A program made the position numbers and the translations under genes. Below the pieces are notes generated by a model. The model worked only from the letters and a program-made list of their open reading frames with translations, searched no databases and had not been told where the DNA came from. A DNA stretch of 39,338 nt from Rhizaria sp. SCN 62-66. Lineage: Eukaryota. Each line of letters opens with the position of its first letter. The first letter of the stretch is position 1. Below, piece by piece: positions 1 through 38,551 of the stretch. Location of the stretch: assembly GCA_001724265.1 (NCBI GenBank), contig MEDY01000060.1:62001-101338 (forward strand). The letters are read 5' to 3'.

Positions 1-286
1 ACACCCAAAACCGTTTTCGTTCCGCATCGTGATTGGAGCTAGCAGTGAGCAGCTTCATTAAAACATATCTACCGAGAGATATACTCGAAATTATAGCGAT
101 ATTTCTTCTGAACCTGGTTATATTTGCAGTACGTCTATTATATCAATTTATTACTCATACACAGACACACGTCTATACGTATTTTCAGCTTCTTTTCGCA
201 CCCAGTCGATTTTGAACTTGATCAAACCCTCCAAAGCCTCCAACAGTCCTGCAGCGCTTCTCGTCTGCGCACCTGACGTCTGCGCG

Positions 287-3200
287 ATGCCCATCACCCC
301 TGCCTTTACTTGGGAGCAGACGGACGACACCGTCAAGGTTGTCATCAAGTCCGTCTCCATCAGCAAGGCCAGTCTCTCTCTCTACGGTACGTTTTTGTAT
401 TTTCAACACACGCTTGCAGTTACTCACTTAGGCCTGCATCCCACATGACATCCCAACCGCGCTCATCGCATGTACCGCTTTGTCTACTGCTTTTGTTGCT
501 TGCGCGCGCAGTCTCTGATGTGTTTGTGAAGCTGAGCTCGCCACCTCTGCTGCTGCAGCTCGACCTCCTCCACCCCGTCGTGCCTTCTCGCTCCCGCGCC
601 GTCGTCGTCCCGGGCGGCGTCGAACTCCACCTCCGGAAGGCCACCACCACGGCAACTACCGGCGCTGATGCCGCGTGGTCCGCGCTGCAGCTGCCTGCGG
701 CGACTCCGGCGCAGGCGCGGTTATAGCGGCGCGCGGCGTCGATCGCTGCCCAGGACGCCGCCGCGGCCGCCGCGCGCGCCGCGGCCGCCGCGCGCGCGTC
801 TGAGCGCAAGGCGGCCGCACGCGAGGCCGACTGGGACCTGGAGGCGCGCATGCGGCTGCTCGGCGAGCGGATCGTCCAAGAGGAGCGCGATGCTGCTGTT
901 GGGGACCTCCTAGCATTGCATCCTCCCACTGCCACTTCTAACAACAACAGTCACAACAAAAACCGTAACAAGCAACTGATGGATGGTGATAGTGCTGCCG
1001 TGAGCGCTGCGAAAGTGGGGCCCGTTGCAGCGGACGCGGCAGATGACAAGCGTGGCGCGACCGCAACCGCATCCGACGCAGCCTCCGTCTCTAGTAGCAC
1101 CCCCTCACCGGCTGCGTCTCCTGCACCTGCGGTCGTTGCGAAGCCTACTGCTGCTGCTGCTGCGACAACTCGCGTTCTGCCGCCGCCGCGCGTTCTGCCG
1201 CCCCCGCGCCGCGCCGCCGGCTCCGCGGCTGCCGCGCCCGTGCTCGTTTCCTTCACCGCGCGCACCGGGCCGTTGGCCCACTTGCCCGCGCGTGAAGCCG
1301 CCGACCGGAAGGCCCTGCTCACGGTCCGTGCTCTCACCCGCGCCCGGCTCCGCGGCGGCCACGGCGGCGGCCAAGGGAGCGCCGGGGGCGGCGCGGTGGG
1401 CGAGGACGGGCTGAGCGAAAGCGAGCGTGTTGCGTGGGCTTACAAAGACAAAGGCGACGCGTTCGCGCGTGAGGGCGCGCTTAAGTCCGCTGTGGAGGCG
1501 TATACGCACGCGCTTGCGCTGGATGGATTCTGCGGGGACGCGCTGGCCAACAGGGCGGCGGCGAGGCTCCGGGCCGCGGCGGAGGCCTGGGGAGCGACGG
1601 CGGGCGCGGTCGCGGTCGAGCTGCCAGCGCCGGTCTACATCGCCGCGCCTGCAGCAGCCTCTGCTCGTGCGGCTGTGTCCGCATCTGGTGACGGGGAGCA
1701 GCAGCAGCATCAGCAGCAGCAGGATGACAAGAAGTCTCAGAACGACGACAATGAAGAAGAGGAGGAGGAAGAGCATTTTGATAGCGCCACTGCCTCCACC
1801 ACTACCACTGTTGATCCCGAGCCTAAACCGGAGTCTGAGCCTGAGTCTGCGCAAGTAGGTGAGGAGGATTTCATGGCGCTGCTTGCGCTGCCGTCCCCTG
1901 TCAAGCCCTCCGCGCCCGCACCGATGCCCACGGTCGCCGCGCCTCTCGCCTGTCGCCCCGCTCTTGCGGCCGCGGCGGCGCATTTGGCCGGCGCAACTGC
2001 CGGTGGCGCGGCTGCCAACTCTGGTGCGGCTGCAGCGGCGCTTGCTGCGGCGGCGGCGGACACGGCGGCCGCGGTGGGCGCCGCGCGTGGTGAGCTGCGG
2101 CTATGTGTTGCCGACTGTACGCGTGCTCTGCGGATGACGCGCGAGGGCCTCCACGTGCCCATGCGCAAGGTACGAACAACGTAGTGCAAAAAAAACAATA
2201 TATTATATTATATAATCTAACTTAATTTAACTTCATTGACCTTACTCACACTTTTGTTGTTGATGATACTGTTTTTGTTGTTGTTTTCTTTGATTTTGTG
2301 CAGATTCACTTCACGGTGAAGCTGCTGACTCGTCGCGCGCAGGCGCTCGCGCTCTTGGGCCAGCCCGCCGCCGGTGCCGCCGACGCCCGTCTCGCGACTC
2401 AGCTGCTGCCGGCCCTGCGCACCGAGGCCGCAGCCCACGACGCGCAGTTAGCGCGCATCGCGGCGGACCTCGCGCCCGCGGACAGTGCTGACGCCGCCTC
2501 CACTGCCGCGGCGACACCGACCAGCGCGCTCGTGACGCCCGCCACCGCCGCCGCCGCCGCTGCCACTGCTGTGGTGGCTGTTACTCCCACGACTGCCGCG
2601 GCGTCCGCGTCCGCTGCTGCGTCCGCGGCTGCTGCGTCGGTGGCTGCTGTGGCGGCTCCCGGCGTGACCGCCGCTGCCGCCGAGGCCGAGGCCGCCGCGG
2701 TGCTCCGCCTGTCCGCGGATTTGACTCGCCGCGGTGCGCTCTTATCCCGCTGCGCACCGGCCGCGGACGCCGCGGTGGCCGCCGCCGCTGCTGTGGCGCG
2801 GATGCTGCGGCGCGCGCTGGCGCAATCCGGCACTCTCGGCGCCAGGGCACTCGGCGCCACTGTGCGCGTGCGTGCGCCGCTGCGCTGGCTCCAGTCCGCG
2901 GGCCTCATCCCCGCTGCCACAGTAAGTACAGGCAACGGCGACGCACAGGAACCGGAGGTTGCTGACGGTGGCGATGACTGTGATGATGATGATTTCCGCA
3001 TCGATGTGGGTGCGCTGTGTGCTTCGGCGGCGGTGCTCTGCCCTTCCTCTGCCCCCTTAACTGCACGTTTGACTTGCGGGACCGCGACTGCGAACGCACG
3101 TGTGACAGCGAGCGCCGACGTGGCATTTACTCGTCTAGTTGCGTGGGCGCTGCGTGCGCTGTCAGTCGTGCTCACAGTCACCCCTGCACACGCGCGCGCG

Positions 3201-5389
3201 CTCTCACAGCGGGCTACGTTGTTGCACACCGTCGGTGCCGCCGCCGCCGCCGCAGCGGCGGGCAAACAGCCCGCCCAGCGCGCAGCCCTCACTAAGCTGT
3301 ACGTGTAACTATTAAAAAAACACGATCGCTGTTTATCCATGCTAATTTATTTCTAAGTTGAATATATCTAATCTTACTCTCATATCTCTACCTCACTCTT
3401 ATTTCTTTTCAATTCACTTCACAGTGCGTTGACGATGTGGTGCGCTGCGGCGGCGGACGCTTCCGCCGCACTCGCTCTGGTGGCTGACGCGCCTAGCGCC
3501 GCGCGTCGCGTGCGCGTGCCGCGCTCTGCACTGGCGCCCGCCGCGGATGCTGCGTCGGGCGTGACGCAGCCCAATAGCGACGACGATGAGCGCGATGAGT
3601 TCAACTCGTACGTCCTTCTCTATGCTCGACAAAGCGTGACATGCGACGCGTAATTGACTTGACTGCTATCAAACTGCTGGTGTGTTTTGGTGCTATGTTC
3701 ACTCGATCGAATTATCATAGATCAAACTTGTTTCTGAACGGTATTCACATGTCTTTGTCAATTTTGTGTTCTTCTATTTCTGTTTTTGCGCCGCTCAACA
3801 GTGAGCAGCTGGGCAAGGGCTCCGCCATGGACGGCATGAACACCAACGGCGGCTCCGCCTCCTCCGGTCTTTCATCTGCCCTGACCACCGCTGCGGTCTC
3901 CGGTCCCACAGCGGGCGCGGTCGCCGTCCCCGCCACCGACGCCGACGCCGCCGCCGCCCAAGCCGAGGTCGACAAGATCATCTCCGACGCCGCCGCGCGC
4001 TCCCCCGGCTCTGCGGGCGCGGGCGGCGCGGGCGGCGTCTGGCGCACCGCGGCCGAGCGCGAGGCCGCCGCGGCACAGGACTCAGCCGCGCTGGCGGCGG
4101 CGCGGTCGTTTGAGCCTCTTGAGCGCCAGAGGCTGCATCTCACGGCGCCCGCGGCCGCGCCCTGGCTCGTGGCAGCGCTCGCTGCGCCCGCCGTCACCGC
4201 GGTCGCCGCTGCAGTATCAGGTCAGAATCAGAGCCACAGTGCGACTGCGGCGACTTCGGCCGCGACAGCGGCTGTTGTGGCTGCGGTGCGCAGCGCCGGC
4301 GTCCGCGCCGCCGCAGTCGAGGCGCTGCCGCCCCGTACGGCCGCCATCGCCGCGGCGACGGCCGCGCGCGCCGCCGCTCTGTGGGCGATTGGCGAGACCC
4401 TGGCCCACGCCTCCTCCGGCTCCTCCGCGGCCGCCGTCGCCGCGGCCGGCGCTGGCGCTGGCGCCGGCGTGGGCTTAGCCGAGGGGCTCGCGGCCGTGTC
4501 GGCTGCGGTCCGTGGCGACCTGGCCGCTTTACCGGGGCTTTTGTCGGCCGCGGCGGGCAGCGCGCCGGCGGACCGCGAGCTCGCCGCCGCTGCGGCCACG
4601 GCGGCCGCGGCGGTGACCGCGACCCCGCCCGCGCCCGTGCCCGCCGCGGCCGCGCTCGTGCTGTTGCGCGGCGCTGCGGCAGCTGCTGCGTGCGCCACGG
4701 CGTCGTGGGCCGTTGAGGAAGCCGCGGCGGTGGCGCACGCAAGCGCGCTGGAGAGGCTGCTGGGGCAGGCGCAGCGAGCGCACGCCGCCGGGGCGTTTGG
4801 GAAGGCGACGGAGGCGTGGGGCGCGGTGATAGAGAAGATCACCGCCGCTGCTAACAGCAGTTCTAGCGCAAGCAGCACTTCCAGTAGCAATAGCTCTGCG
4901 GGCGTCGATGTGGCTGCGCTGGCGTTGACTTGGGCGAACCGCGCCGCGTCGCTGTTGCGGGCTGGAAAGGCGCGGGAGGCCGTTGTTGACTGCTCGCGCG
5001 CCGCGGACGCTCTTCGCGATCAACTCACCCTTCGTCAAAACATCAATAATGCCAGCGCACCCTCAAACACTCACACAAGCACGAGTAGGGCGAATAGTGC
5101 GGTGAATCGTGCGGTGCTTGAGCGGGCGTTGGTGGCCGTGCTGGCCCGTCGCGCCGCGGCTCGCATGCGCGTGGCACTCCCCGCAACCGCCGCGGCGACC
5201 CCGGCCGCGGCCGCCGCGCTGGTGGCCGCGACTGCCGCGGCGGCGGCGGCGGACTTGCGCGAGGCGTGCGCCGTGGCGGAGGAGTCTGGAGCCGTGGGTG
5301 ACCGGGAGCGTTTGGCACTGATGCAAGACCTCAAGCGGCTGCAGGACGCCACCGCCGCGGCGGGCACCGCGCAAAGGGCCGATGCGTGA
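287..5389 (+). CDS. DNAAF4: DNAAF4/DYX1C1/PF23-like dynein axonemal assembly factor (N-terminal CS/p23 domain, coiled coil, multiple TPR repeats); exons 287-386, 512-2169, 2304-3298, 3425-3607, 3802-5389; about 1507 aa with one internal TAG at 724-726
   Basis: Spliced N-terminus MPITPAFTWEQTDDTVKVVIKSVSISKASLSLY|VSDVFVKLSSPPLLLQLDLLHPV resembles the DYX1C1 CS domain. It is followed by a charged helix (RRAASI...ERIVQEERD) and TPR motifs (YKDKGDAFAREGALKSAVEAYTHAL...ANRAAARL; VKLLTRRAQAL; TWANRAASLLRAGKAREAVVDCSRA). Four GT-AG introns join the exons in matching phases (1,0,2,2). Total 4524 nt, divisible by 3; ends in TGA. Confidence 0.8.
387..511 (+). other. Spliceosomal intron 1 of the DNAAF4-like gene (125 nt, phase 1)
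   Basis: GTACGT donor, GCAG acceptor; splicing joins two frames into a continuous CS domain. Confidence 0.85.
2170..2303 (+). other. Intron 2 of the DNAAF4-like gene (134 nt, phase 0)
   Basis: GTACGA donor, AT-rich body, T-rich tract then GCAG; the flanking GC-rich ORFs join in frame. Confidence 0.85.
3299..3424 (+). other. Intron 3 of the DNAAF4-like gene (126 nt, phase 2)
   Basis: GTACGT donor, AT-rich body, pyrimidine tract then ACAG; phase matches the 3429-3653 ORF frame. Confidence 0.8.
3608..3801 (+). other. Intron 4 of the DNAAF4-like gene (194 nt, phase 2)
   Basis: GTACGT donor, ACAG acceptor; phase matches the 3641-5389 ORF frame. Confidence 0.8.
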
Positions 5390-9105: not shown

Positions 9106-9981
9106 CAGCCGGTGGCCAAGAGCCGCGGCGGTCGCAAGCCTAGCGCCGCCAATGCCACTGCCGCCGCCGCTGCCGCCGCCGCTGCTGTCGCAGCTGCTGC
9201 TGAGGCGGGCCGCTACGAGTCAGAGCATCACCACGCTCTGCCGGGCAGCAACACCGGTGAGTTCGACAGCAGCGCTGACGGCGGCGACGACGACGACTCC
9301 TCAGCCCCCGCTGCTACCCAGACGGCTGCTGCGGCGGCGACGGCGAGCGCGGGTCTGCCGCCTAACTCGCGCCGGTCGTGCCCCGTCTGCTTCAAGACGT
9401 TCCGCGACGCGTACTACACGGCGCGCCACATGCTGACGCACTCCAAGGTGCGCGATTGGCAGTGTGCGCTGTGCCACTTCGCCTTTTCGCAGCCCGGTCA
9501 TCTCTCGCGCCACCTCAAGGCGATCCACCCGGCCGATTGCCGCGCCGCGTGTGGGGCGTGCGGCGGCAGCTTTGCGCTCCAGGGCGCGCTGCTGCAGGAG
9601 AAGGTCGTGCCCTGCGCCCACTGCACGCAGCCGTGCTCAGTTCACGCCGCGCTGCTCAAGTTCAACGAAGGGCTTGCGGCGGCCGCCAGGGACGGCGCTG
9701 TGGCCCCGTCACAGGCACAGGTGCAGCAGGCAGAGGCGCAGGCGCAGGCGCAGCAGCTCGCCAACGTGCAGGCGCAGATGCAGGTCGCCCAGGCGCAGGC
9801 ACAGGCGCAGGCACAGGCGCAGGCGCAGGCGTTACAGGCGCAGATGCAGGCACTCACGCAGCCCTCTGCCCACAGTCACTCGCGCGCGCAAGACGCCATG
9901 TCCGCTGCCGTGGCCGCGGCGACGGCGGTGTGGGCCGCGCGCGGGCCCGCGGGCAACGGCGTTGATTCTGACGCGCAGTAA
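6961..9981 (+). CDS. C2H2 zinc-finger protein (putative transcription factor) with poly-Q and poly-A tracts, about 1006 aa; start uncertain (an upstream in-frame ATG lies near 6883)
   Basis: Single long GC-rich ORF. Two tandem C2H2 fingers at 9379-9528 (CPVCFKTFRDAYYTARHMLTH-SKVRDWQ-CALCHFAFSQPGHLSRHLKAIH), basic patches (SRKRTRP, KSRGGRKP) and Q-rich segments; ends in TAA. Confidence 0.8.
9049..9108 (+). repeat. CAG/CAA trinucleotide repeat encoding Q20 in the zinc-finger protein
   Basis: Visible run of 20 CAG/CAA codons; a second shorter run lies near 8524-8562. Confidence 0.95.
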
Positions 9982-10155
9982 GTAAGCAGCCAGCAACAAA
10001 CAGCAAACTGGAAGCGAGAAGTGGGAACGTGCTGTTGTTGTTGCTGCTGCGTGCATGCGCCCGTGTTGTTGATGTTGTTGTTTTTTTATCCGTAATTTGT
10101 CTTCTCTCATCTCGTTCGTTCGATACTTTCTGTAACCAAACAATAGGTATAATTT

Positions 10156-10158
<3 letters not shown>

Positions 10159-10192
<34 letters not shown>
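10159..10192. repeat. (CT)17 microsatellite
   Basis: Perfect dinucleotide repeat in the presumed 3' UTR of the zinc-finger gene. Confidence 0.95.
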
Positions 10193-10199
<7 letters not shown>

Positions 10200-12157
10200 C
10201 TGAAGTGATTTGTTACCCGCCGACCCCCTTCCTTCTTTCTGTCTCAAGAACAACAATCAGACATGTCCACCAATCTTCTCTTCACCACCCTCTATTCCCC
10301 TCTTACACTTAGTACACACACATATATATATTTACGCCACGCCGACTTCAATGTTTCAATTTTAACTTTGTTTCTTGCTCTTTCTTTGCGACTGTTCCGC
10401 AGTCTCTTCTTCTTGTTTCTGTCAAGTCATGTGTCCGCGCTCTCGCCTAGATGCATGTTCCTTGTCTAAATTTTCAAAAAAAATAATTACTTTCGTCACG
10501 TTCTTGTCTAGTCTTACTTGAATGTTTGTTACTTTTCGCTGCACTGCGCCAGCAATACTCCGGTCATCGTTGGCTGCAACTTCCCACTACTGTTTATATT
10601 ATGCTGTTTATCTTGATGTTTATTTGATTGCGACCGTCTATATATTGCGTTTGTTTTTCTGTTTTTGGGATTGGTTTTCTCCGACATTTTCGTTGCTCTT
10701 CCTGACCTTTGCGCTCTGACCGCGTCGTATCTCCGTACGTTCTGTGCTGTGTTCTGTGCGGTTGCTGTGTTAAGCTCCACATGTCGAACCGCGCTACGCT
10801 GTCACTCCTGCATACGGACACGCCGCGGCGGACTCTGCAATTGTGCGTCGGGAATGATGCTCGATGCCGTGTGTTTGTACCTCCCATATTCCGTGCTGTG
10901 CTCATTCTGATTGGCTGGCGCCCCCCCTCTCTCTCTTCTGACGTTCTCTAGTGTGTTGTCTATGTATGATTGTCTTGTTTGCTTGTGTCACTTCCACTGT
11001 TTCTCTTTCTTTTTAGTTTTCTGAGCTTGTTTCGTAATACTTTGTTTTCTTTTCACCTGGCCGTGCAGCGCTTTGTCGCCGCTTGCTCCATTCCAACAAG
11101 CCTCGTTTTTATGCATTGCCCACAATCGCCGCGTCCACACACACCAAACACAATGTACATTTTTCCGTTTAAATAGTGTCTGTGTGTGACGGCGCGACGA
11201 TGCTGAAACTTTAGTCGCTCGGCTGAGAGCTGACCCGAAAGCTGTGGCTGTGCAGTTATGCACATGTGCGCGTTGCAGTGGTCAACGTACGCTGGAGGCG
11301 GTCTCGATCCAACTCCTCGCTTCGACACATCACGCGCTCGCGTTCTGTATAACTCTAACACCGTCGATCTTGCCCAATTCACTTGTTTCTGTTCAGAGTA
11401 CAATTGCTTGGCATGATCGGAAACGTTGCCTAGTATTACTATCATTATAATTTTATAATTATTTCGTTGTTACATAATCAATCTGATGGCATTCTTTCTG
11501 TAATAAACAATTACTATCTATTGTTCCAAGCTTCGTTGTCAGTGACTGCAGTCGCATTACAGGAGCTACATTATTTGTTTTACGGGACTTCATGGCAGGC
11601 GTCAGCTTTTGTGGACATTTATGTTTGTATTGATAGTCTTGCTTCATAAATAAGAAGCAACAAACTAAACATATTAAACCGCGCAAAGTGGTGGCGGATT
11701 GAAACAAAACAAAATGGAGGGGGAAAAAATGAACATATGAACGAACCAGCACACACAATGCGTGGGTGCGGCAACATGCCGCATTAGGTAAATAAAGGAA
11801 TACAATAAGCAGGTAAACTAGAGTAACAGGTGACAAGCCGAGAAAAAAAAAGTTGTCTTTCGTGTTCTCTCAAAAGAGAACGGTTCACGAAAAGCTAACC
11901 AAAGAGCAGAACAAATTGTGTGTTACTTTTCGTAACAGCACACAGCACTTGGACTAAGAGCGCATCACAAAAACAAATCCTTCACAGACTGACTAACAGA
12001 CTGATTAGCTGCACATCACAGACGAAGCGTTGGCTGAGTAGCTAAACATCTCAGCAACAACCTAACACTGCACAGCACAAGCAAGCAAGCACATTGCATC
12101 CGTCGTACTACATGATGTTTAACAATTGCGTGTCGGGGATAACGGCGTTTGGGACGC

Positions 12158-20702: not shown

Positions 20703-21845
20703 ATGCGTTTCGCTGTCGTTGCTGCCATGGCTGTCGCTGCCGCGACCGCGTCCGTCCCCACCTACGACGGCTACACCTACGACATGTTCCTCGCCGAGCA
20801 CCGCCCCGCCATGCTCCTCACCGGTGAGAAGCCCTGCCCTGCCCGCAAGGCTGTCTTCGAGGCCAACCTCGCGACCATCAAGGCGCACAACGCCCAGGGC
20901 CGCAGCTGGTTCATGAAGGTCAACGAGCACGCTGACATGACTGAGGAGGAGTTCCTTGCCTTCTACACCGGTCTCGACAAGTCGTCCCGCAACCAGGCCC
21001 GCCTCACCACCACCCGCGCTGCCACCCGCATCCACAACGACTTCGCCATCTCGTTCAAGGCCCGCCGCCAGTACGAGGACGTGAGCGCCCTCCCCGTCTC
21101 CGCTGACTGGAGCAGCACCATCAAGACCGCCCTCAACCAGGGCCAGTGCGGCTCCTGCTGGGCCTTCGCCGCCGCGCACACCTTCATCGGCCGTGCTAAC
21201 ATCGCCTCCGGCAAGGACGTCTCTGTTTCCGCCCAGCAGATCACCTCGTGCACCCCGAACCCCCGCAAGTGCGGCGGCTCTGGCGGCTGCCAGGGTGCGA
21301 CTTTCCAGCTCGCCGCCGACTACATCACCAAGGAGGGTTTCCTGACCACCGCTGAGGCGTACCCCTACACCTCCGGCTCCACTGGTTCCACCGGCTCGTG
21401 CAAGCTTGACGCCTCGATGCCCCGCGCGCTCACCATTGGCGGCTACACCGAGCTCCCCAAGAACAACAAGACTGCTCTCCTGGCCGAGGTTGCCAAGGGT
21501 GGCCCCGTCTCTGTCTCCGTCGCCGCGTCCAAGTGGTTCCTCTACGGCGGCGGCGTTTTCGACGGCTGCACGTCCTCCAAGGACGGCATCGTTAACCACG
21601 CTGTCACCATGACCGGCTACCAGCTCGAGGGCACCCCCTACGTCTCCATCCTCAACTCCTGGGGCAAGTCCTGGGGCGAGAACGGCTACATCCGCCTCAA
21701 GATGTACGATTCCGAGCCCGTCACCTCGGACACCTCCCCCCACTCCGGCGCCGCGTGCGCCGATGAGCCCAGCGTCCCCTACGACGTCGTCGGCGAGTGC
21801 GGTGTCTTCTCCGACTCCGCCTTCCCCGAGGACGTCAAGGCGTAA
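20703..21845 (+). CDS. Papain-family (C1A) cathepsin-L-like cysteine protease prepropeptide, 380 aa, intronless
   Basis: Signal peptide MRFAVVAAMAVAAATAS; I29 propeptide (RKAVFEANLATIKAHN, VNEHADMTEEEF); catalytic motifs NQGQCGSCWAF, NHAV and NSWGKSWGENGYIRL; strong C-ending codon bias; ends in TAA. Confidence 0.96.
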   Translation: MRFAVVAAMAVAAATASVPTYDGYTYDMFLAEHRPAMLLTGEKPCPARKAVFEANLATIKAHNAQGRSWFMKVNEHADMTEEEFLAFYTGLDKSSRNQARLTTTRAATRIHNDFAISFKARRQYEDVSALPVSADWSSTIKTALNQGQCGSCWAFAAAHTFIGRANIASGKDVSVSAQQITSCTPNPRKCGGSGGCQGATFQLAADYITKEGFLTTAEAYPYTSGSTGSTGSCKLDASMPRALTIGGYTELPKNNKTALLAEVAKGGPVSVSVAASKWFLYGGGVFDGCTSSKDGIVNHAVTMTGYQLEGTPYVSILNSWGKSWGENGYIRLKMYDSEPVTSDTSPHSGAACADEPSVPYDVVGECGVFSDSAFPEDVKA

Positions 21846-22771: not shown

Positions 22772-25700
22772 ATGTCGTCATCATCTGCTGACGCCATTAG
22801 CGTCGAGGTCCGTTCTACCGCCTTAGGACCCGTTCCCGTCATTCGTAGATCTCTCTCAGAATCCTGAACATTCCTCCGAACCGTTTGTTGCTTTTGTGGT
22901 CATTTCTCATTCCTCTCACACATCGCACCGATACTGCGTCTCACACTCATACAGGCCCTGGAGACTGTGCATTTCCGCTTCGTCTCCACGGACGATGACA
23001 AGCTCGCCCCCGCTGTGGCCCGCGTCCTCCCCCGCATCCTCCGCCTCCTCGCTCCCGCCGCGCCCGCCGCGCCCGCCGCCGCCACTGCTGACGGCGCCGC
23101 ACAGCCCATATCCGCGCCGCCGCTGGCACCCGTGTCGCAGATCTGCGCGCACCTGCTCAAGCGCATCAAGGCCATCCCCGCTTTCCCCTTGCCGATCCCA
23201 GCCTTGCTCGAGGTCGCCCGTGACGCGCGCGCCGGCATCTTGCTCCCCACGGCGTCTCTGCTGGCGCTCTCGTTCCTCGACTGCGCCGTGCCGTCGCTGC
23301 CGCGCGCCGACGCCGCCGTGGCCGCACTCGCACTGCTGCCCGGCGTTGCCGCACTGCCCGCCGCGCAGCAAGGCCTCGTGCTCTCTCTGTTCCTCCGCGC
23401 CTTGCCGGGCTTCCGCTCAGGGGTCTACGCCGACCTCGACGCCACCGTCGCCGCCAACAAGGCTGCCGCTGCGACTGCAAGTGGTGCTGTGGAGACTGCT
23501 GCTGCTGTTGCTGCGGTCGGTGTGCCTGAGAGCGCGCCGCTCGTCGCGCGGCTGCCGGCGGGGCTGCTTGAGGGCGCGCGCGCGGCGTTCATCGCCAGTG
23601 AGGACGACAAAGCGCTTGTTCTATCGGCGATCAAGGAGCTGTTCCTCTTCGCGCCTGACGCGTACAACGCCGCCGTCGCTGCCGCCACCAGTGCTGCCTC
23701 GGCGGCTGTTGCTGGTGTGGGCGCTGCTGGCGCCGCGGTCCCCCAGTCGCCTCTGTCCCCCGTCTCTCCCACCGGCGCCGCCGCCGGCGCCGCAGCTAAC
23801 TCTGTGACGCTGCCCGGCTTCAGCCCCGCGTCACTGGCGCGCTTTACGCGCAGCGGCCGCTGGGTGCCCGCGGGAGCTGATCTCGAGGCCCTGCGGACCG
23901 CGGCCGTGTCGTTCCTCGCCGCCTCCGCGGGCCCGGCGCCGACCTACGATCCCGAACTCACAGGGGCCGCCGCCTCTTCTCCCACTTCCGCGAGCCTCGC
24001 AGACTCCATCTCAACGCCATCCATTCCTGCTGTTGCTGCCGACGGCGGTGAGGACTCGCCCTCTGCTGCGTCTGCTACCGCGGCAACAACAGCCGCGACG
24101 GCGACGGCGTTCACTTGTGCCCAGGTGTACCCGGTCCTCGTGGCCGCCGCCGCATGCGCCGAGGACCGTGTGTCGATGCGCGCCGAAGAGTCCGCGCGCC
24201 GGCTGCCCGGTCTCGCGCCCCACGCCGACGCGGCCCTCGTCGCCGGGCTCTTCGCGCTGTACTCCGGCGGCGCCACGTCCCCCGCGCTCTCACTCGCCGC
24301 CGGCTCTGCAGCCCAGGTCGCTCCAGCGCCGCTGGCGGCGAAGCTGCGCGTGATCGAGGCGCTGCGCCAGTCCCGTCTCACCGCGGCGCCTGCGTTCGCG
24401 GCCAGCACACTCAAGGTCGTGTCGGATGCGTTCTTCGCCCCCGCGCCCGCGGCCGCCGTCGTGGGGGGCGGGCTGGAGGGCTCGACCGTCCGCACCAAGG
24501 CCGCCGGCGTCGCGCTCGCGTCGTGGGTGCTGATGCGGCTCGGCCAACCCACCGTGGATGTCACCGCAAAGAATCCTGCTGCAGGGGTTCAGGCGGCCAA
24601 TGCACCGGCGCCGTCGCCGTTGCCGCGGCTGTTGTTTCCGCTGCTCCTGACGCTGCTGGCGCGGATGGCGGCTGAGCAGCGCCGCGACTGGGCGGCCCGC
24701 GACCGGAGCCAGGCGTCCCTGCGCTCGCTGTCGGCCTTCGCGCCGTCCGCGGCCGCGCCCGCCGGCGACCGCGTCGCGGTGTCGACGGCGGCGCGCGACG
24801 TGCAGTGGGCTGCGCTTCGGGGGTCAGTCTACCACTGTCTCGGGGCGCTCGCGGCTGCGGCGCCAGAGACGGTGAACCGCAACCTCGCAGTTTTCGAACT
24901 CTTGCTCGCGCCAGTTGAAGGCGCGCCCGTTGCAGTGTCATCCTCCTCTTCCGCCGCTGCGTCTGCGTCTGTATCGGTGGCTTCCGGTGCGGTGGGGGCC
25001 GCGGGCGCGCTGGCTGCCGACGCGGCCGCCGCGGTGGCCGCGGCCGAGGACGCCACAAGCTCCGGCGCGGGCGCCAGCGCGGGCGCGGGCGGCGCCGGCG
25101 CCGGTGCTGGCGCGGCTCTGCGCCAGGCGTGTCTCGAAGCGTTATCGATGCTGCGGCCAGGGTTCTCCGCGTCCCACGCGCCGCCCGCCGCGCGCCGGCT
25201 GCTGCGGGCGCGGCTCTACGCGCTGCTGGGCGAAGGCCGCCGCCGCCGCCTGCTCGCGTTACAGTGGCTGAACCGGCTCTACCCGTTCTCGGACGCCGAG
25301 GCGCGGGTGGCATGTTGTCTCGCCGCGGCGGACGCGGCGCCAGAGGTGCGGGCTGAGGCGCGCGCGGGGCTCGAGCTCGGCACCGGCGTCGGCCGCGAGG
25401 CGGGTGACTCATCTTCCACCGCCGCCGCCACCGTCACTGCCTCCTCCACGGTACCCAGCTCTGCGTCTGACCAGGACGAGGCGGTGTTTGACGGCGACGG
25501 CGGGGCGAACGCGGCGGCCGAAGCGCTGGCGGCGCCGCAGCAGGCGCCCACGGCGGGCTCGAAACATCCCGCGTTCCCGGTGTTCATGGACGAGCTGCGC
25601 AGGCGGCTTGACTTTTCCGCGCTGCTACCGCTGACGCTCGAGGCTAAGCATAGCGTGGCCGCCGCTGCGGGCTCTGCCGCCGCCGCTGCGGCAGCTGCCG

Positions 25701-28700
25701 CTGCGACGGACCATGCGTTCAGCGGCTACTCAACCAACGCTCCCTCTAGCGGCGCTGCAGCTGCAAGCTTAGGCGCAGGCGCGAGCGCAGGCGCGGGTGA
25801 GGGCGCGGGCGCGGGTGAGGGCGACAACTCTGACCACACGCCCGGTGGGACTGCGGCCGCGACGGTGCTTGCTGCACTGACCGCCGCGGCGGCGGCCGGC
25901 GCCGCTGCGGCCGCGGCTGCCACCGCAGCGGGCGCGTCCGCCACCGACGCCGAGGCCGCCGCCGCCGCCGCCGCGCTGGCGGCGTCTCCCGTGCCCACCG
26001 TGGCCGTGACCAACCTGCCGTCCCAGGCGCTGCGGGCGATGCTTGCGTTCGCGCTTGAGACGCTGCGCGCGTCGGCCGAAGCCGCTGCCGCCGAGAAGGC
26101 CGCTGCCGAGGCCGCCGCCGCCGAGACCGCCGCCGCCGAAGCCGCCGAAGCCGCTGCGGCGGCCGCGAGCGAGGCCGCGGCACTCGAGGCCGCTGGCGGA
26201 GTTAGCCCCTCTGCTGGTGGGCTCAAGGAGACTGCGCTGAGCAAGGCCCTCGTGCTCGTCCAGGTGGCTGACCCCGCCGCTGCGGAGGCCGCGTACCTCA
26301 CCGCCCTGCTCGCCACCCCCTCAGCCGCCGGTGTCCGCCCCGCAGGCGCCTCCACTGGCGTTCCGGCGGGCGTCGCGGCGGCTGCGACACTGCACGCGCT
26401 GGCCGAGACCGGCTTCACCCCGCTTGCGCCGCCGCCGCTGCAGGACGCGGCTGCCGAGGCGCTGCTGCGGCTGCTGCGCGGCGCGCCCGGTCCGTTCGCG
26501 CGGCTTCTGCGTTCGCGCACGCAGTGGTTGCTGCGGCTCGCGCTGTCTGCCTCGGCCGCCGACGCGCGCGTGTGCGCCGCAGTGACTCTGGCCGAGGTCG
26601 CGCCCGGGATGGCCGTCACCGACCTACTGGGGCTCGCCGCGCGCTGCCTGCCCGCAGTCGACCACGCACGGCTCGCGGTGGAGGACAGGCGCGCGCTGCA
26701 TAGGGCCGCCGCGCAGTGCCGCGCGCTGAGCAAGCCCGCGCCCGACGCGCGCGCCCCGGTGTACTGGCCCGCCGTGGTCGACGCAGCCACGGGCAGTGCG
26801 GTCACTGCTGCCGCCGACGAGGATGCCTCGACAACCAGCGCGCTGCTGAGCTTCATGCTGCCCGCCCGCGCATCTGCTCCGAGCACCGCCATTACTGCCG
26901 CTGCCACTGCGCGTGCTGTGGCGATGACGGACTCTGACTCGGCCAGTGCCGCTGCGTCCGCGTCTGCGTCTGCTTCGCTGGGCGCGTGCTCGCTGCAGCC
27001 CTGTGCCGCTCTGGCCGCGTCGCTGTCCGCGGCCGGCGCGGGCACGAGCGCGGGCGCCGAGGCCGCGTTGCTCGTCCCCGCGGCGCCACGGCTCGACACA
27101 GCGCAACTGCAGGGTGCACTTCTCGCGCTGGGTGTCGCCGCGGCGCAGCTGGCTACGCACCCCGCCGTGCGCCAGGCGCTCCACTGGGCTCGGCCGCGCC
27201 GCGCGGGCGCCACGGCAGCCGCCTCAGCAGCCGCCGAGGCTGCGGAGGACCCGGAGCTGCGGCTGACGCCCGCGCTGGCGGCCGCGGCGGCGCTGGTGCC
27301 GCTGGTGACGCGGCTGCTGCTATGGTTTGTCTCCCCCGCGCCGGGCCCCGCGCTGCTGCTGCAGGCGCCTGACGCCGTCGCTGCAGCCGCGTTAGCGCTG
27401 GCGCGCGTTGCCTCCGCGGGCCCCCTCACGCCCGCGCTCACAGCCTCCTCTGCCGCTGCCTCCTCCGCCGCCTCCGCGGCTGCTTCCGCGGACGCCGCGG
27501 GCTTCGCGCCCTCGCTGGCGACGGCGGTGGCTGATTTGTCGACGCTCGTGCGCGGTGTCGCGCCCTCGCGCGCGGACACTGCGGCCGCCGCCGTTGCCAT
27601 CGGCGGCGGCGGCACTGTCAACGCGCGCTTCCTCGCGCAGCAACAGGCGCAGCAGCAGCAGGCGCAGGCGCAGCAGCCCGGCGGCGGCGCATCGCAGACT
27701 CCCGCCGCGGCCGCCACCGCCGCGGCAGCCGCGGCCGCTGCCGCGGCCGCCGCGCCGCCGCCGCGCCAGCCCGGGCGCGTGTCAGAGCGCGCCGCCCTGG
27801 CGCTGGGCGCGTTGTGCATCGGCGACCGCTCGCTGCGCACGCTGGCGGAGCTGCGGCCCGCGCTGGCGGCGCTGGGCGCGGTGCGGCACGAAGAAGTGCA
27901 CTTCTCTGTCGGCCAGGCGTGGGTCATGTTCGTCACCGGCATGACGCTCGAAGGCGAGGCGGATATCGTCGATCTCTGCCCGTTCCCCCCGCTCGCACCC
28001 TTCCTGCCGCCCAGCGCTGACACCGACGCCGACGGAGCCGCCGGAGACAGCGCCAACGCCGGCGTCGGCGTTGAGGGCAGCGTGGCCCCGCGCCGGCTGC
28101 GGCTGGCCAAATCCCTCGTTCCGCCCGAGGCGCCCGCGGCCGCGCTGCCGCTGCTGACCGCGCTGCTCGCCGACGCCGGCGAGTGGCTGCGCCACGGCTC
28201 GCTCTCTCTCCGCGCGGCGACCACGGTCTGGCTGTTGTGCCTTGTGCGCCACCTCGCGCGCATGCCAGAGTTCGTCCCGCTCGCGCCGCGCGCCCAGGTG
28301 TGCTTCATGCGCGCGCTGACCGAGTCGGACTCGTTCGTCCAGGAAGCGGGCTCCAAGGCGCTGTGTCTGCTGCACGACGCCGTGCCGTCGCCCAAGGCCA
28401 AGCAGGAGCTCGTCGACGCGCTCATCCGCACGTTCACCGCGCCCGCGGCGGCGGCTGCGGCGGCGGGCCGCGGCAACGCCGACACGGTGATCGACACCGG
28501 CAAGGGCGGATTCGCGACCTACCGCGAGCTCGTCGCGGCCGCGCACGACATGGGCCAGCCGGGGCTGGTATACCGCTTCATGGATCTCTCAGCGCACCAC
28601 GCGCTGTGGAACAGCAAGATGGGCGCGGCTTTCTCGCTCGGCACGCTCCTCGCGCGCACGCCCGGCGGCGGCGCTGCCTCCGCGGCCAACAAGGCGGGCG

Positions 28701-31700
28701 GCACTGAACGCAATGCGACCGCGCCCGGTGTGGCGCAGCTAGTGCCCAAGATCTTCCGTTACCGCTACGACCCGAACCCAAAGATCGCGGCGTCGATGGC
28801 GTCGCTGTGGTCCGTGCTGCTGCCCGACCCGCGCCGCGCTGTGGCGGACTTTTTCGACCCCATCACGCGTGAGCTGTTGGCCGGCATGCAGCAGCGCTCG
28901 TTCCGCACGCGCCAGGCGTCCTGCGTCGCGCTCGTGGAGGTGCTCACGTCCCCGGGACTGCCGCGCCGCGCAGTGGTGGGCGTTGTGGGGGAGACGTGGC
29001 CGCTGCTGCTGCGCGCGCTCGACGACATCCACGACGACGTGCGCAAGGCTGCGCTGCGTCTCGCGCGCACGCTGTCGTCAGTCACGCTGCGGCTGTGCGA
29101 CCGCTCGCTGTCGGGCGCCGCGGACTCGGCCGCCGCCATCGACGCCGTGCTGCCCACGCTGCTCGACGTGGGGCTGCCGTCGCGCGTCAAGGACGTGCGG
29201 TCTGTGGCGCTTGCCGCGCTGCTGGGCGTCGCCAAGGTCGGCGGCGCGTCGCTGCGTCCGCGCGCGCCCGCGCTGCTGGGGACACTGCTCGAGGGCCTGT
29301 CGTCGCTGGAGCCCGCGGCATTTGCGTACATGCAGTTCCATGCCGCGTCGGTTGATATGACGTCTGAGCAGCTGGAGCGTCTCCGCGTCGCCGTTTCGCG
29401 ATCATCGCCGCTCAACGAGGCCATCGCGTGCTGCCTCGCGCTCATCGACGGGTCCGTGATCCGCGAGACTGTGTTACGCCTGCAAGAGGTGATCCGCGTG
29501 GGCGTCGGCTTCCAGACGCTCGTCGCCGCCGCCAAGGCCATCGTCACGCTCATCTCCACGGCGCTGCGCGCTGATAATGCGGCGACGATGCGGCCCGCGC
29601 TCGCTGACGCCGTGCCCGGTCTCGCCAAGACTCTCTGTGCCGGGCTGGTAGACCCTTCGGCCACCACGCGCAAGGCCTACGCACACGCTCTCGCGCACTG
29701 CTGCCGCGTCGCCAAGCGCAAGCGCGTCGGTAAGATCGTCGCCGTGTTGGCCGCGCTCTTCGGCGCCCCGCTCGCCTCGGCGGGCGGCGACCCCGCGGTC
29801 GCGGCCGCGGCCGACTTTTCGCTCTCTTCCCGCGCGCTAGGCGGCTCCGGCGCCGCGGGCGGCAGCGGCGCGGGCGGCGACGCCGACGCGGGCTCGATGC
29901 CCGTGCCCGAGGCGTCGTCACCCGCTTTCGCGCGCCTCGCCGCGGCGACTGCGCTAGCCGAGCTGCTCAAGGTCGCGCCCGAGGCTGTGCGCGACTTCGC
30001 TGTCGACATCGCGCCGCTGGCCTTCCTCGGCATGCACCTGTCCGCCGCCGCCGTGCCGCCGCCGCCCGCGGCCGCGCTCCAAGGCCTGCCCAGTATGATG
30101 GCCGGCGGTGCGTGGGTCACTGCCGCAGGCACCGGCGTCACGGCCACCGCAGCTGCCGCAGCCACGTCACCCTCAGCGGCGCCTCCTGTTGCTGGCGCCG
30201 GGGAGTCAGACGCGGGCGCGGCGTTGCGCGCGTTGCTGGCGGCGTCGCAGTCTTTCTTGGCGACCGCCCCGGCCGCGGGCGCGGGCTCCACTGCGCTGGA
30301 CGAGGCCGAGCGCCTGATCCGCAACATCGGCTCCACAGTCAGCGGGGACGCCGGCGCCGGCGCGGCCGCTGCTCTCGCCGGCGCCGCCTCGTCCGCCGCC
30401 GGCTCCGGCGCGGCCACGGGGTCGGCGGGTGCGGTGAGCGCCAGCGCGCTGCTGGCGTCCGGCGACTCCGGCGCCGAGGCCGAGGCCGCGGGGCTGTTCC
30501 GCACGGTGTGGCGTGAGACGGCCGCGGGCGACGCCACAGGCGCGCTGCTCTACGCGCTCGACATCTCCGCCGGCGCGGCGCGCGTGCTCGCCGACGCGGG
30601 CGCCGAGTACGCGCTTAAGGCCGCGGCGCTGGGCGCGTTCGAGACGCTCGCACTGCTGGCGCACGCCGCGCTGCCCGCCGCTCTCGACGCCGACAAGCTG
30701 CTACGCCGCCTGTGCGCAGTCATGTCCGAGCGCGCGTGGAACGGCAAGGAGCGCGGTTTCGGCGCCATCGTCGCCGTACTCGCCGCCGTGCGCGCGCATG
30801 CGGCCGCGAACCCGACCGCGGCGCCCACCGTGTCGCAGGCGTGTCTGCAGACCGTGTTCGACACGCTCGCAGGCGAGACCACGCGCGCGCGCGTCGGGTA
30901 CAAGAAGCGCGCTCTCGCGGCGCTGGGACAGGCCGCGGCGCTGTTCCCGGCCGCCGGCTGCGAGGGCGGCGGCGCGCGCAGGTCCGCGCTGGCGGCGGCG
31001 CGGGCGTGCGTGTCGCCCTGGCTGCTGCTGGAGAACGAGGCCGAGGACGCCGCGGCAGCTGCGCTGGGCGGCGCCGAGGCCGCTGCGGCAGCGGGCTCGG
31101 GCGCCGGCGCGGCGACGGTCCGCGGCGGCGCGGGCGCTATCGGCGGCGAGGACGCTACGGGACTCAACGGGATGCGGTTGACTGAGCTCAAGGCTGAGTC
31201 GCTGCTGTGGGAAGTTGTGCTCGTCGCGGTCGGCCACGCAATCCCGCCCTGCTCTCTCGAGAGCCACACCGCGTCTGCCGCGATCACGGTGACTGCGACT
31301 CCGGCGGCGGGCGCGGAGGCGACGTTCGCAGACCACGGGCCGTGGGCGCTGGGCCTGCTGCTGCGCGGTCTGCGCCGCGGGCTGGCGTGGAACGCCCGTC
31401 TGGCCGCGCTTGAGGGGCTGCTGTCATGGACCGCGCGCGCCCCGCTGGCCCTGGCAGTGCTCGCGGGCGCCGCTCTGGCGGCCGCAGCCGAGGAAGGACT
31501 CGGCGACGTCAAGCACAAGCTTGTGCGCATGGCCGCCGTGCGCCTTGTTGCCGCGCTCGCCGCGCGCACGCGCCAGGCTGCGGCCGAGGGCGCGGCGGGC
31601 ACTCTGGCGCTGGGCGCCTCGCTGACCGGACTGGGCGCGCGAGTGCGCTCGGTGGCGGTGGCGGACCCCCGCGGAGAGGTCATGCTGGCGGCCGCTGAGT

Positions 31701-31852
31701 GCGCGCGCGCGGTCGAGGCCGCGGAGCGTGATGTCGAGAAGTCGCGCTCGAAGGGCGCGATTGCGGGTGCCGGTGAGACGCAAGGCGCTGGTGTGCGCAT
31801 GGGCGATGGTGACGGCGACGGCAAGGAGGAGAGTGGCTCGGGCGACATCTAA
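22772..31852 (+). CDS. ECM29: ECM29/ECPAS proteasome adaptor and scaffold (HEAT repeats); exons 22772-22807 and 22955-31852; about 2977 aa
   Basis: N-terminal ALETVHFRFVSTDDDKLAPAVARVLPRILRLL and the characteristic core TYRELVAAAHDMGQPGLVYRFMDLSAHHALWNSKMGAAFSLG...LVPKIFRYRYDPNPKIAASMASLW...WRTRQAS-like FRTRQASCVAL...LLEGLSSLEP...ERLRVAVSRSSPL; ends in TAA. Exon 1 (MSSSSADAISVE) is inferred. Confidence 0.9.
22808..22954 (+). other. Intron of ECM29 (147 nt, phase 0)
   Basis: GTCCGT donor after a 12-codon ATG exon, ACAG acceptor; supplies the ATG that the 8.9-kb ORF lacks at its 5' end. Confidence 0.7.
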
Positions 31853-35803: not shown

Positions 35804-36691
35804 TTAAACAGCAGCACCCTCCGCCGCCGTATCATCACAAGCTGTTTCCTCACTCGCTGCAGTCTCCGCAGCCTTGCACGCGGCCTCCGCGACAGCAGCT
35901 GCATCCTCCTGTGACAGATCAAAGTCAAGCCGCGCGGTATCAAGATTCTGCAACAGGAGCTCGCTGTTGGGCGTGTCATTCTCATCCCAGCGCGCCTCGC
36001 TGGCCGGCAGCGTCGCGCAGATCCCCGCGGCCCAGTTGCGCCGCGCGCCGCGGCGGCGACACTCGTCCAGCGGACACCGCAGCAGCGTCCGGAGCGCAAA
36101 CCAAGGCGTCACGGCCTCGCGCCAGGGAGACAGCTCCAGCAGCAGGTACAGCCCCTCAACGAGCGCCACACGGCACGCGCGCGCGGGCGGCAGCGCGGCG
36201 GCGCCCGGGGAAGGGTCCTTAAGCGCGTGGTCCCACCCGGGCGCCGCCACGGGGCCCGGCTCGGTGGCGACGGCGTGCAACGTGCGGCAGAGGGCCAGGG
36301 GGTCGAACGTCCAATGCGCGCCGCGGCGTGCGTGCGCAAGTGCGGGGGACGGAAACTAGTCCAGAGTGGACCGGGGCAAGTGGAAACCGTCCATGGGCAG
36401 CACGGTGCACGCCTGGATGGGTGGGGCGTCTGTGGAGGAGTCGGCGGCCGCATTGGCACTCGGCGATGAAGAAGCACGGGCACGGGCGCGTTGGGCGGCA
36501 ACAGCGTTGGCGAGACTGCAGAGGTGGCCGGCAAGAGTCGTCTTGCCGGAGGCACAGGGGCCAACGAGGGCCACAAGCCAACGCTCGCGGCCGGGAGGCA
36601 GGGGCGTCTAGGAGAGCTCGACAATGCGCTCAACGAGCGCCGCTGCCGTCGCAGTCGTCGGTAGCGCGATCACCGCGTCTGAGATAGACAT
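35804..36691 (-). CDS. YFH7/uridine-kinase/phosphoribulokinase-like P-loop NTPase, 295 aa, intronless, with two internal TAG codons (codons 28 and 112)
   Basis: One 888-nt frame from ATG (36691) to TAA (35806-35804): MSISDAVIALPTTATAAALVERIVELS*TPLPPGRERWLVALVGPCASGKTT...VLPMDGFHLPRSTLD*FPSPALAHARRGAHWTFDP...APGWDHALKDP...VALVEGLYLLLELSPW...RWDENDTPNSELL. All motifs typical of this family are present in order. Confidence 0.88.
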
Positions 36692-36996: not shown

Positions 36997-38551
36997 ATGT
37001 CTGACTACGAGGACGATCGCCCTCTGATGACGGGTCTGCAGACGCACCAGGCTTCCTATATGGCCTCCTCGTCCTACGCTGACGTCTCTCCGGCCGAGCA
37101 CACGGAGCAGTCTTTCACCTTGACAATGTCTGCTGGTCGTGGCGTCATGTTCTGCCTGGTCGGCATCTCGGCCAGTTTCCTGCTCGCGCTGGCCTGGGTC
37201 ATGGCCACCGACGCCGCGCATGTCACGCGTACGCACTGTCGCGTCGCAAACTGGCTGCCCTCGTTTTCCGCCGTCATCGGACACTCCTACATTACCGTAC
37301 GTTATTGTACTGTCATCCGCCGACTGCACTTTGTTGCCTGTCCACCTATCATGGACAGCTGACGAACAAATATCTCTTTTTCGCATATCACATGCTCACT
37401 CGCTCTTGAACTCTTTCGTGACATCATTATTGCGTATTACTCTTACGTGGGCATAGTCCGCGCTGTGGCGCACCGGCGTGTGCATTATCTTCACGATCCG
37501 CTGCGCGAGCGCGTTTATCTACCACTACTGGTACGCCCCGCCCTCCGCCGTCTCCGTTTCATCTTTCGCCCCGCAGACCTCGTCCTTCGCCGCGTCGGCC
37601 ACGGCCGATGACCTGTGGGGCGGGCCCTGGCTCTGGCGGCTCTCGCTGCTGCACTCTGCGCTTATTGTGCTGGAGAACGTGTCGCTGCTCGAGCTCACCA
37701 GTATCACTTCGAAGGACTCTGGTTCGACGCACGAGATCTTCTTCATCCTCTTCATCGTCGCCGCAACGACGGGCATGCTGCTGCAGTTCCCGCTGCTCAA
37801 CCGCAAGATCGACACCCTCACCGCGCTCGCAGTCGCGGGTGGCTCCGACCCTGGCGCCCCCGCGCTCAGCCTCAACGCGACCATGGGCAGTCAAGGGACC
37901 GTGGGCGCCACTCAAGGGGGGACTGGGACCGTGAGCGCCGCAGTGGCGGCGGGCGCGGCCGCGACCGTGGCGCGTCTGCAGCGCTCGCGCATGTACAAGT
38001 CCGCCTTTTGCGTGCTGTGGCTGGGGCTGCTGTGCGCTGCGGCGTATCTGTTTCAGCGCCACAACGCGATGTGCGAGCCCGGGATCTACTCGCTGTTCGC
38101 TCTGTCGGAGTACTTCCTCGTCGCGTCAAACATCGCGTTCAATTCGACGCTCGCGATGGACGTGCCCGGGGGCGCGTACACGTTTACGATGCCGCACTAC
38201 AGCCTCGCGCAGTCAGGCGGCGCGCTGTCCGGCTCACAGTCACTCCCGCAGTCGCAGTCTCACTACATGCGGGCCCGGTCTGCGGTGGCTGCGCGCGGCG
38301 GAGGGCGGGCGCTCGTTGGCGCGGCGGCGGCCATCGGTGTCGCCGGCGTCAGCGGTGTCACGGGTACTGGGGCATCCTGGGACGGCGATGGAACCGCTGA
38401 CAGTGACGGCGCTGGCGCTGTGAGTCGCGCTGGACCTGGTGTTGGGGCCGGTGGTGCTGGGGCTGCGTTCGTGGCTGGGGTGGGCGCTGTGGGGGCGGAG
38501 CCCGTGGCACGGGGCGGCTGGCGCGGCGTCGGAGCAAAGGCGGGGATGTGA
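36997..38551 (+). CDS. PGAP2: PGAP2/FRAG1 (Frag1/DRAM/Sfk1 family) post-GPI attachment factor; exons 36997-37296 and 37457-38551; 464 aa
   Basis: THCRVANWLPSFSAVIG|..LWR, ENVSLLELTSITSKDSGSTHEIFFILF and FQRHNAMCEPGIYSLFALSEY are PGAP2 motifs; phase-0 intron; ends in TGA. Confidence 0.88.
37297..37456 (+). other. Intron of PGAP2 (160 nt, phase 0)
   Basis: GTACGT donor, CATAG acceptor; splicing restores the family spacing LPS..SA.IG-x8-WR. Confidence 0.85.

Follow-up and report, generated by a model that had tools for sequence, protein, structure and literature searches.

In-frame UAG codons in a DNAAF4-like gene and a kinase gene of an uncultured wastewater eukaryote point to a sparsely used UAG sense codon

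Nuclear codes in which UAG alone has changed from stop to sense are described for a handful of lineages in the passages of PMC5304391 and PMC11687900 that treat them, and such codes bear on the uncoupling of UAG from UAA. According to these passages, UAG is read as Gln, with UAA (and UGA) as stops, in Iotanema spirale (Fornicata), and as Gln in the ciliates Hartmannula sinica, Trochilia petrani and Protocruzia tuzeti. It is read as Leu, with UAA and UGA as stops, in Rhizaria sp. exLh, where 384 in-frame UAGs are given for 71 genes, and in a clade of phyllopharyngean ciliate metagenome-assembled genomes (MAGs) (PMC5304391, PMC11687900). The green alga Scotinosphaera, as treated in PMC11687900, reads UAG as Ser and still uses UAA as a stop. 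Here, we analyse a 39,338-bp stretch of contig MEDY01000060.1 (the window, in which positions are counted from the first letter), where one in-frame TAG at 724-726 interrupts a DNAAF4-like gene, G1, and two more interrupt a kinase gene, G8. The sequence evidence makes it probable that UAG is a rare sense codon, and that UAA and UGA terminate, in this nuclear code.

As in the Gln codes of Iotanema and the ciliates, UAG is the only stop found in frame, UAA is the commonest terminator (6 of 9 gene ends) with UGA ending the rest, and Gln is among the two best-fitting residues, being present at one site in P0414, the closest orthologue of G8. Unlike the Gln codes, the window is very GC-rich, with 82% GC at third codon positions (GC3), and it uses UAG far more rarely, namely 3 times in 8069 codons and never in five long genes. 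With exLh and the phyllopharyngean MAGs it shares a UAG-only stop-to-sense change, which is probable here, and an origin in environmental or contaminant sequence; terminators are solely UAA or UGA there and at the nine gene ends of the window. However, the density of in-frame UAG is far higher in exLh, and Leu is a poor fit here (log-odds -0.85), with Ser, Asn and Gln standing at the three sites in the closest orthologues. Scotinosphaera resembles the window in a UAG-only reassignment outside the ciliates, probable in the case of the window, and Ser occupies the TAG column of G1 in its closest orthologue, P0125, but Ser scores -0.89 over the three columns and no tie links the window to green algae.

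Programmed stop-codon readthrough is known from single genes, at viral and some cellular UAG and UGA sites. The present case is similar in that synthesis of the full protein depends on passage through a stop inside a functional frame. It differs in that the three sites lie in two unrelated housekeeping-type genes and share neither a 3' hexamer nor a structure; moreover, essential domains lie downstream and near-complete decoding would be needed. The window probably represents a further member of the UAG-only nuclear code variants, notable for its sparse use of UAG. In the main texts searched, no report of a UAG-sense code in a GC-rich wastewater eukaryote was found. If the reading is true, the window would offer a GC-rich, intron-bearing, non-ciliate snapshot of the early phase of reassignment, the point of dispute between the codon-capture and ambiguous-intermediate models.

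The TAG at 724-726 in the DNAAF4-like gene

An earlier note on this DNA, made from its letters without database searches, placed the open reading frames (ORFs) 310-726 and 850-2184 in a shared frame. These proved to be the ATG-delimited forms of the stop-to-stop ORFs 277..726 and 727..2184, which lie in one frame with the TAG between them. In the rebuilt model, G1 has five exons that are spliced to 4524 nt, or 1508 codons, and end with TGA; as the note had it, the frame is broken only once, by the TAG at codon 105. The features of G1 are as follows:

724..726, plus strand: in-frame TAG, G1 codon 105, sole internal stop of the 1508-codon spliced frame
727..849, plus strand: the 41 codons between the two ATG-delimited ORFs, open and coding, with the family motif RRAASI at their start
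287..386, plus strand: exon 1, start ATG at 287, first strands of the CS domain
387..511, plus strand: intron 1, GTACG...CAG, 125 nt, 50% GC
512..2169, plus strand: exon 2, remaining CS domain, TAG, RRAASI helix, conserved central block and first TPR
2170..2303, plus strand: intron 2, GTACG...CAG, 27% GC
2304..3298, plus strand: exon 3, following intron 2, part covered by an RNA contig of run X5
3299..3424, plus strand: intron 3, GTACG...CAG
3425..3607, plus strand: exon 4, 3' end fixed by the spliced contig X6 record 29
3608..3801, plus strand: intron 4, GTACG...CAG, 194 nt, 42% GC, removed in X6 record 29
3802..5389, plus strand: exon 5, terminal TGA at 5387-5389

The closest orthologue of G1, P0125, is a protein of 649 amino acids encoded on a 15.8-kb metagenome contig and called by a bacterial gene caller. 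Its ORF begins with the same start peptide as G1, runs through the position of intron 1, where it holds an unrelated read-through stretch, and then continues unbroken through the whole of exon 2. Across the TAG, 91 of 139 residues are identical (65%) without a single gap. The best conserved part of the alignment is formed by the 41 residues directly after the TAG, 35 of which are identical, and this bears out the note's description of codons 727-849 as open and normally coding. P0125 has Leu opposite the Met at 850, so the ATG there is not a conserved start. The alignment shows conserved coding sequence on both sides of the TAG.

The codon-usage score in the frame of the TAG is +0.22 upstream and +0.64 downstream of it, and the best other frame scores -0.11 and -0.34, respectively. 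It should be noted that the base composition of the 123 nt around the TAG (81% GC) gives an expected stop frequency of about 1 per 110 codons, and by the same arithmetic about 70% of 41-codon stretches at such GC would be open by chance; thus, the 41 open codons mean little alone. The weight for coding is carried by the frame-specific codon usage and the homology to P0125, not by bare openness. The same 123 nt contain no GTACG donor, in agreement with the note, which had seen neither an AT-rich intron nor a donor site around the TAG. All four introns of G1 begin with GTACG, end with CAG, are 125-194 nt long and have 27-50% GC, versus 70-75% GC in the exons. The GTACG start and the length of 125-194 nt are common to all five introns that can be defined in the window (387-511, 2170-2303, 3299-3424, 3608-3801 and 37297-37456).

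More distant homologues of G1 were collected by a profile search of 1.84 billion representatives. Each of the 11 that passed a motif filter has RRxAS[IVLM] immediately behind the TAG column; the filter itself demanded this motif, and the count therefore informs only on the preceding column. The charged helix that the note had expected after the CS domain is indeed found directly after the TAG column in these filtered homologues. The profile search aligned G1 to P0248, P0249 and P0250, all with clear TPRs. P0248, one of the 11 filtered homologues, has a Pfam CS match of 28.8 bits (cut-off 21.3) at residues 7-78, followed by its TPRs, and P0249 and P0250 have SHQ1-like_CS matches below the cut-off. 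No CS match was obtained with Pfam on single exons of G1, the CS domain being split by intron 1, and TPR_1 reached 16.4 bits in exon 2, below its cut-off of 27.8. A search of PDB sequences for a named DYX1C1 chain returned generic TPR matches only and no matching chain.

A CS domain, a central coiled-coil/DYX region and C-terminal TPRs make up the architecture of DYX1C1/PF23 (DNAAF4, axonemal dynein assembly factor 4) in the account of PMC5608425. We call G1 DNAAF4/DYX1C1-like from this architecture, no named DNAAF4 being among the homologues retrieved and compared. The comparisons support a single uninterrupted CS-plus-TPR gene with the TAG within it. Termination at 724 would reduce its product to the CS domain alone, without the best conserved linker, the central block or any TPR.

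The TAG was also sought in independent sequence data. A contig from a separate study (DNA run X3, record 2) spans 541-929 and shows 0 differences to the window. The 93-amino-acid ORF that ends at the TAG, P0247, occurs on five contigs (MGnify, Logan and ENA), and the same TAG is found in assemblies of different studies and years. A base-call correction, which the note had named as a possible refutation, was looked for and none was found. The TAG is confirmed as real and in frame. In run X4, the contigs are interrupted between 590 and 820, beside a GC-rich low-complexity stretch at 756-791.

The listed contigs of a polyA RNA run, X5, cover 1098-1885, 2902-3138 and 4569-5224, all within exons of G1 downstream of the TAG, and leave its introns and flanks without coverage. 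Near the TAG, the depth that was listed comes from 34-36-nt low-complexity matches at 756-791. One junction of G1 was confirmed, as 3607|3802 is directly seen in a contig of a complementary DNA (cDNA) run (X6 record 29). One X5 contig of depth ~4 has C at position 2969, against T in the window and in DNA run X3; strain variation, an error or editing could explain the difference.

Two TAG codons in the kinase gene and the use of stop codons

About 36 kb from the TAG of G1 and on the opposite strand lies G8, the second gene that the note had brought forward, with two further in-frame TAGs:

35804..36691, minus strand: G8, P-loop kinase of the phosphoribulokinase/uridine kinase (Yfh7-like) group, 296 codons, terminal TAA
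36608..36610, minus strand: in-frame TAG, G8 codon 28, Asn in the closest orthologue P0414
36356..36358, minus strand: in-frame TAG, G8 codon 112, Gln in P0414, gapless, within a conserved LDxFPxP stretch

In the alignment of G8 with P0414, start Met stands opposite start Met and no gaps occur around either TAG. Twenty columns show no variation among 28 sequences; G8 retains every one, and each is located downstream of both TAGs. In-frame UAG is thus found at alignable columns in more than one conserved gene (three TAGs in two genes). The gapless alignments, with one residue opposite each TAG, all but exclude splicing, and two TAGs in one small enzyme mean that efficient decoding would be required.

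The internal in-frame stops of seven genes (8069 codons) comprise TAG 3 times, TAA 0 times and TGA 0 times, and the same genes contain 42 TAG, 24 TAA and 209 TGA off frame. The terminal stops of nine genes are TAA in six, TGA in three and TAG in none. In-frame TAG amounts to ~0.4 per 1000 codons.

Other TAGs in the data were considered and rejected. The TAG at 2182-2184, which joins ORFs, lies inside intron 2 of G1 and is not a codon. The TAG at 37454-37456 is the 3' splice site of a Frag1-family gene, whose intron 37297-37456 ends with ATAG. Two TAGs in P0003 are located in or behind an AT-rich intron, out of frame, and a TAG upstream of the G8 start belongs to the 5' untranslated region. The TGA and TAG sites that a codon-score screen returned antisense to long genes are artefacts of Ala-rich coding.

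The residues opposite the three TAGs were counted in the homologues. At G1 codon 105 (n = 11), they are Ala in five and Gln, Leu, Lys, Glu, His and Ser in one each; P0125 has Ser. At G8 codon 28 (n = 25), Gln and Ala occur six times each, Leu and Asn three times each, besides others, and at codon 112 (n = 27) Ala occurs nine times, Gln five and Thr four, besides others. Log-odds summed over the three columns are 5.37 for Gln, 5.24 for Ala and 2.94 for His, and they are at or below 0 for all other residues (Leu -0.85, Ser -0.89; Tyr and Trp -6.94, the floor for residues absent from the three columns). Gln and Ala tie in these alignments. The note had favoured Gln from the polar helical position in G1, an argument that found no support, as this column is variable, with Ala in 5 of 11 homologues and Ser in P0125. 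The residue inserted at UAG would be polar or small; precedent and the single-step relation of CAG to TAG speak for Gln, and Ala is equally compatible with the alignments. We know of no nuclear code in which UAG is assigned to Ala.

The folding of the sequence downstream of the TAGs gave z-scores of -0.10, -2.77 and +1.52, compared with -0.71 and +1.27 in two control stretches. The value of -2.77 belongs to the stretch 36491-36610 (minus strand), the 120 nt from the first kinase TAG, for which 2 of 200 shuffles were equally stable.

Sense codon, readthrough, decay or error

If UAG is a sense codon, as we hold probable, the UAG at 724-726 would be decoded as an ordinary rare codon in the helix that links the CS domain to the TPRs, and the full G1 protein of 1507 residues would be made. 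A tRNA with the anticodon CUA and/or an eRF1 that is blind to UAG would account for the decoding, and the nine genes suggest a code change that may be genome-wide.

Several observations weigh against this reading. The whole of the data consists of three TAG codons, which come from two genes among nine in one 39-kb window, and five long genes with 6636 codons are free of TAG. If TAG and CAG (276 codons) were full synonyms, dozens of TAGs would be expected from the ratio of TTG to CTG in the genes of the window (60/319), so TAG would be no more than a sense codon that is very rare or poorly tolerated. The lack of TAG among nine terminators is weak evidence, with P ~0.04-0.13 if TAG ends 20-30% of genes. 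No tRNA gene, no eRF1 gene and no Rfam match was found in the window, and no RNA contig among those listed covers 590-1097, the TAG included. In the stop-free ORFs of the closest relatives, the three TAG columns hold Ser, Asn and Gln, and with sense codons there the TAGs would be recent. For the DNA of relatives, 600 pattern matches among metagenome contigs yielded 0 confirmed cases, in collections that lack even the window itself. Similarly, a degenerate pattern for a 14-residue peptide of the CS domain had 0 matches in metagenome, genome and viral contig collections, from which the window itself is absent.

The rarity of UAG and its absence from relatives that are 60-65% identical are the grounds for a further, tentative view, namely that the wastewater lineage may be in an early stage of UAG capture, in which UAG has gone from gene ends and is starting to return as a sense codon. 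We regard this view as possible, though somewhat doubtful.

The same rarity, 3 in 8069 codons with none in the five long genes, would fit a costly codon, that is, a leaky or ambiguous UAG that terminates most genes and is passed at the three sites by near-cognate or context-dependent readthrough. Stop codons with a dual meaning are known from some ciliates and from Blastocrithidia. Nine gene ends are too few to exclude TAG terminators, and downstream of one TAG the sequence folds with unusual stability (z = -2.77). Nevertheless, we consider a leaky UAG unlikely, because two TAGs in a 296-codon kinase would square any inefficiency, none of the nine gene ends is TAG, and two of the three sites have no structure beyond that of shuffles. 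The 3' contexts CGG, ACG and TTT, correctly given by the note, differ from each other. Neither a 3' context nor a downstream RNA structure, the marks of programmed readthrough, is shared by the three sites, so that the note's case against a common readthrough signal stands. Gene decay, in which premature stops would be carried by a strain or population with a broken G1 and kinase, appears quite improbable. The note had counted it against decay that all three stops are TAG, but this point is weak: in the GC3-rich coding DNA of the window, the one-step precursor codons number 1032 for TAG, 244 for TAA and 237 for TGA, and three random nonsense mutations would all be TAG about 1 time in 3. Ordinary sense codons at all three columns in the closest relatives also count in favour of decay. 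However, 1508 + 296 codons contain no frameshift and no further stop, the best conservation of G1 follows directly after its TAG (35/41), the family-invariant residues of the kinase are intact downstream of both TAGs (20/20), the identical TAG recurs in assemblies of different studies and years, and exons downstream of it appear in the polyA RNA run. Reassignment or efficient decoding is therefore the better reading, as the note had proposed; the intact conserved sequence after the TAG and the two further TAGs in G8 support a sense codon rather than decay.

A change at the RNA level, whether through a tiny, unconventional intron or through editing that turns UAG into a sense codon, would be in line with the gap in the listed RNA contigs over 590-1097 and with the single RNA/DNA difference noted outside the site (T>C at 2969, from a contig of low depth). 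We find it very improbable, since the alignments with P0125 and P0414 are gapless, and any intron would delete conserved residues; the five defined introns (in G1 and G9) are 125-194 nt long, AT-rich and begin with GTACG, none such lies near 724, and the difference at 2969 may be a strain variant. A sequencing or assembly error at 724-726 is barely conceivable. No supporting data were found for it, and what speaks in its favour is the break of the X4 contigs between 590 and 820 near the low-complexity stretch. Against it stand the X3 contig with 0 differences over 541-929, the occurrence of the ORF ending at the TAG on five contigs from three collections, and the two further TAGs of the same kind in the other gene.

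The source organism and other features of the window

The window consists of blocks of 70-79% GC that alternate with spacers of 41-55% GC. The GC-rich blocks are eukaryotic exons with a GC3 of 82%, and their products are very rich in Ala and Gln. The stretch occurs in public metagenome runs of several studies on bioreactors, wastewater and activated sludge, among them a polyA metatranscriptome. The source is an uncultured, GC-rich, intron-bearing eukaryote of bioreactors and wastewater.

Searches with the cathepsin, the kinase and the DNAAF4-like protein returned close relatives, at 58-66% identity, from metagenomes only, and the named matches reach at most about 40-45% identity and belong to scattered groups. 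The protein collection contains an exact copy of the cathepsin L-like product encoded at 20703-21845, on four contigs of up to 164,872 bp. Its six metagenomic relatives, P0127-P0132, show 58-66% identity, after which identity drops to ~44%, and to ~40% among named matches; they suggest a whole uncultured clade of engineered and other environments. A pattern for a cathepsin relative gave 62 matches and 0 confirmed cases in the genome-contig collection, which lacks the window itself.

The public proteins P0247 and P0286 are bacterial-type gene calls, and they represent fragments whose ends are set by the TAG and by introns, such as the 93 residues of P0247, which end at 723. As a result of such calling, the database proteins of this clade would be systematically truncated. 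Standard gene calling, like the bacterial type, truncates these proteins (P0247), and the metagenome annotation of the clade needs the right code.

Between the convergent genes for a zinc-finger protein (end at 9981) and a ZIP transporter (end at 12158) lies a stretch of ~2.2 kb, 9982-12157, with 43-45% GC, in which no convincing ORF, tRNA or Rfam match was found. A simple repeat of the CT/GA type is located near 10150-10200 and gives runs of LSLS or RERE in translation. On the plus strand, 22868-31852 is occupied by one unbroken ORF of 2994 codons, which is extremely Ala-rich and ends with TAA. Several long ORFs antisense to it are composition artefacts.

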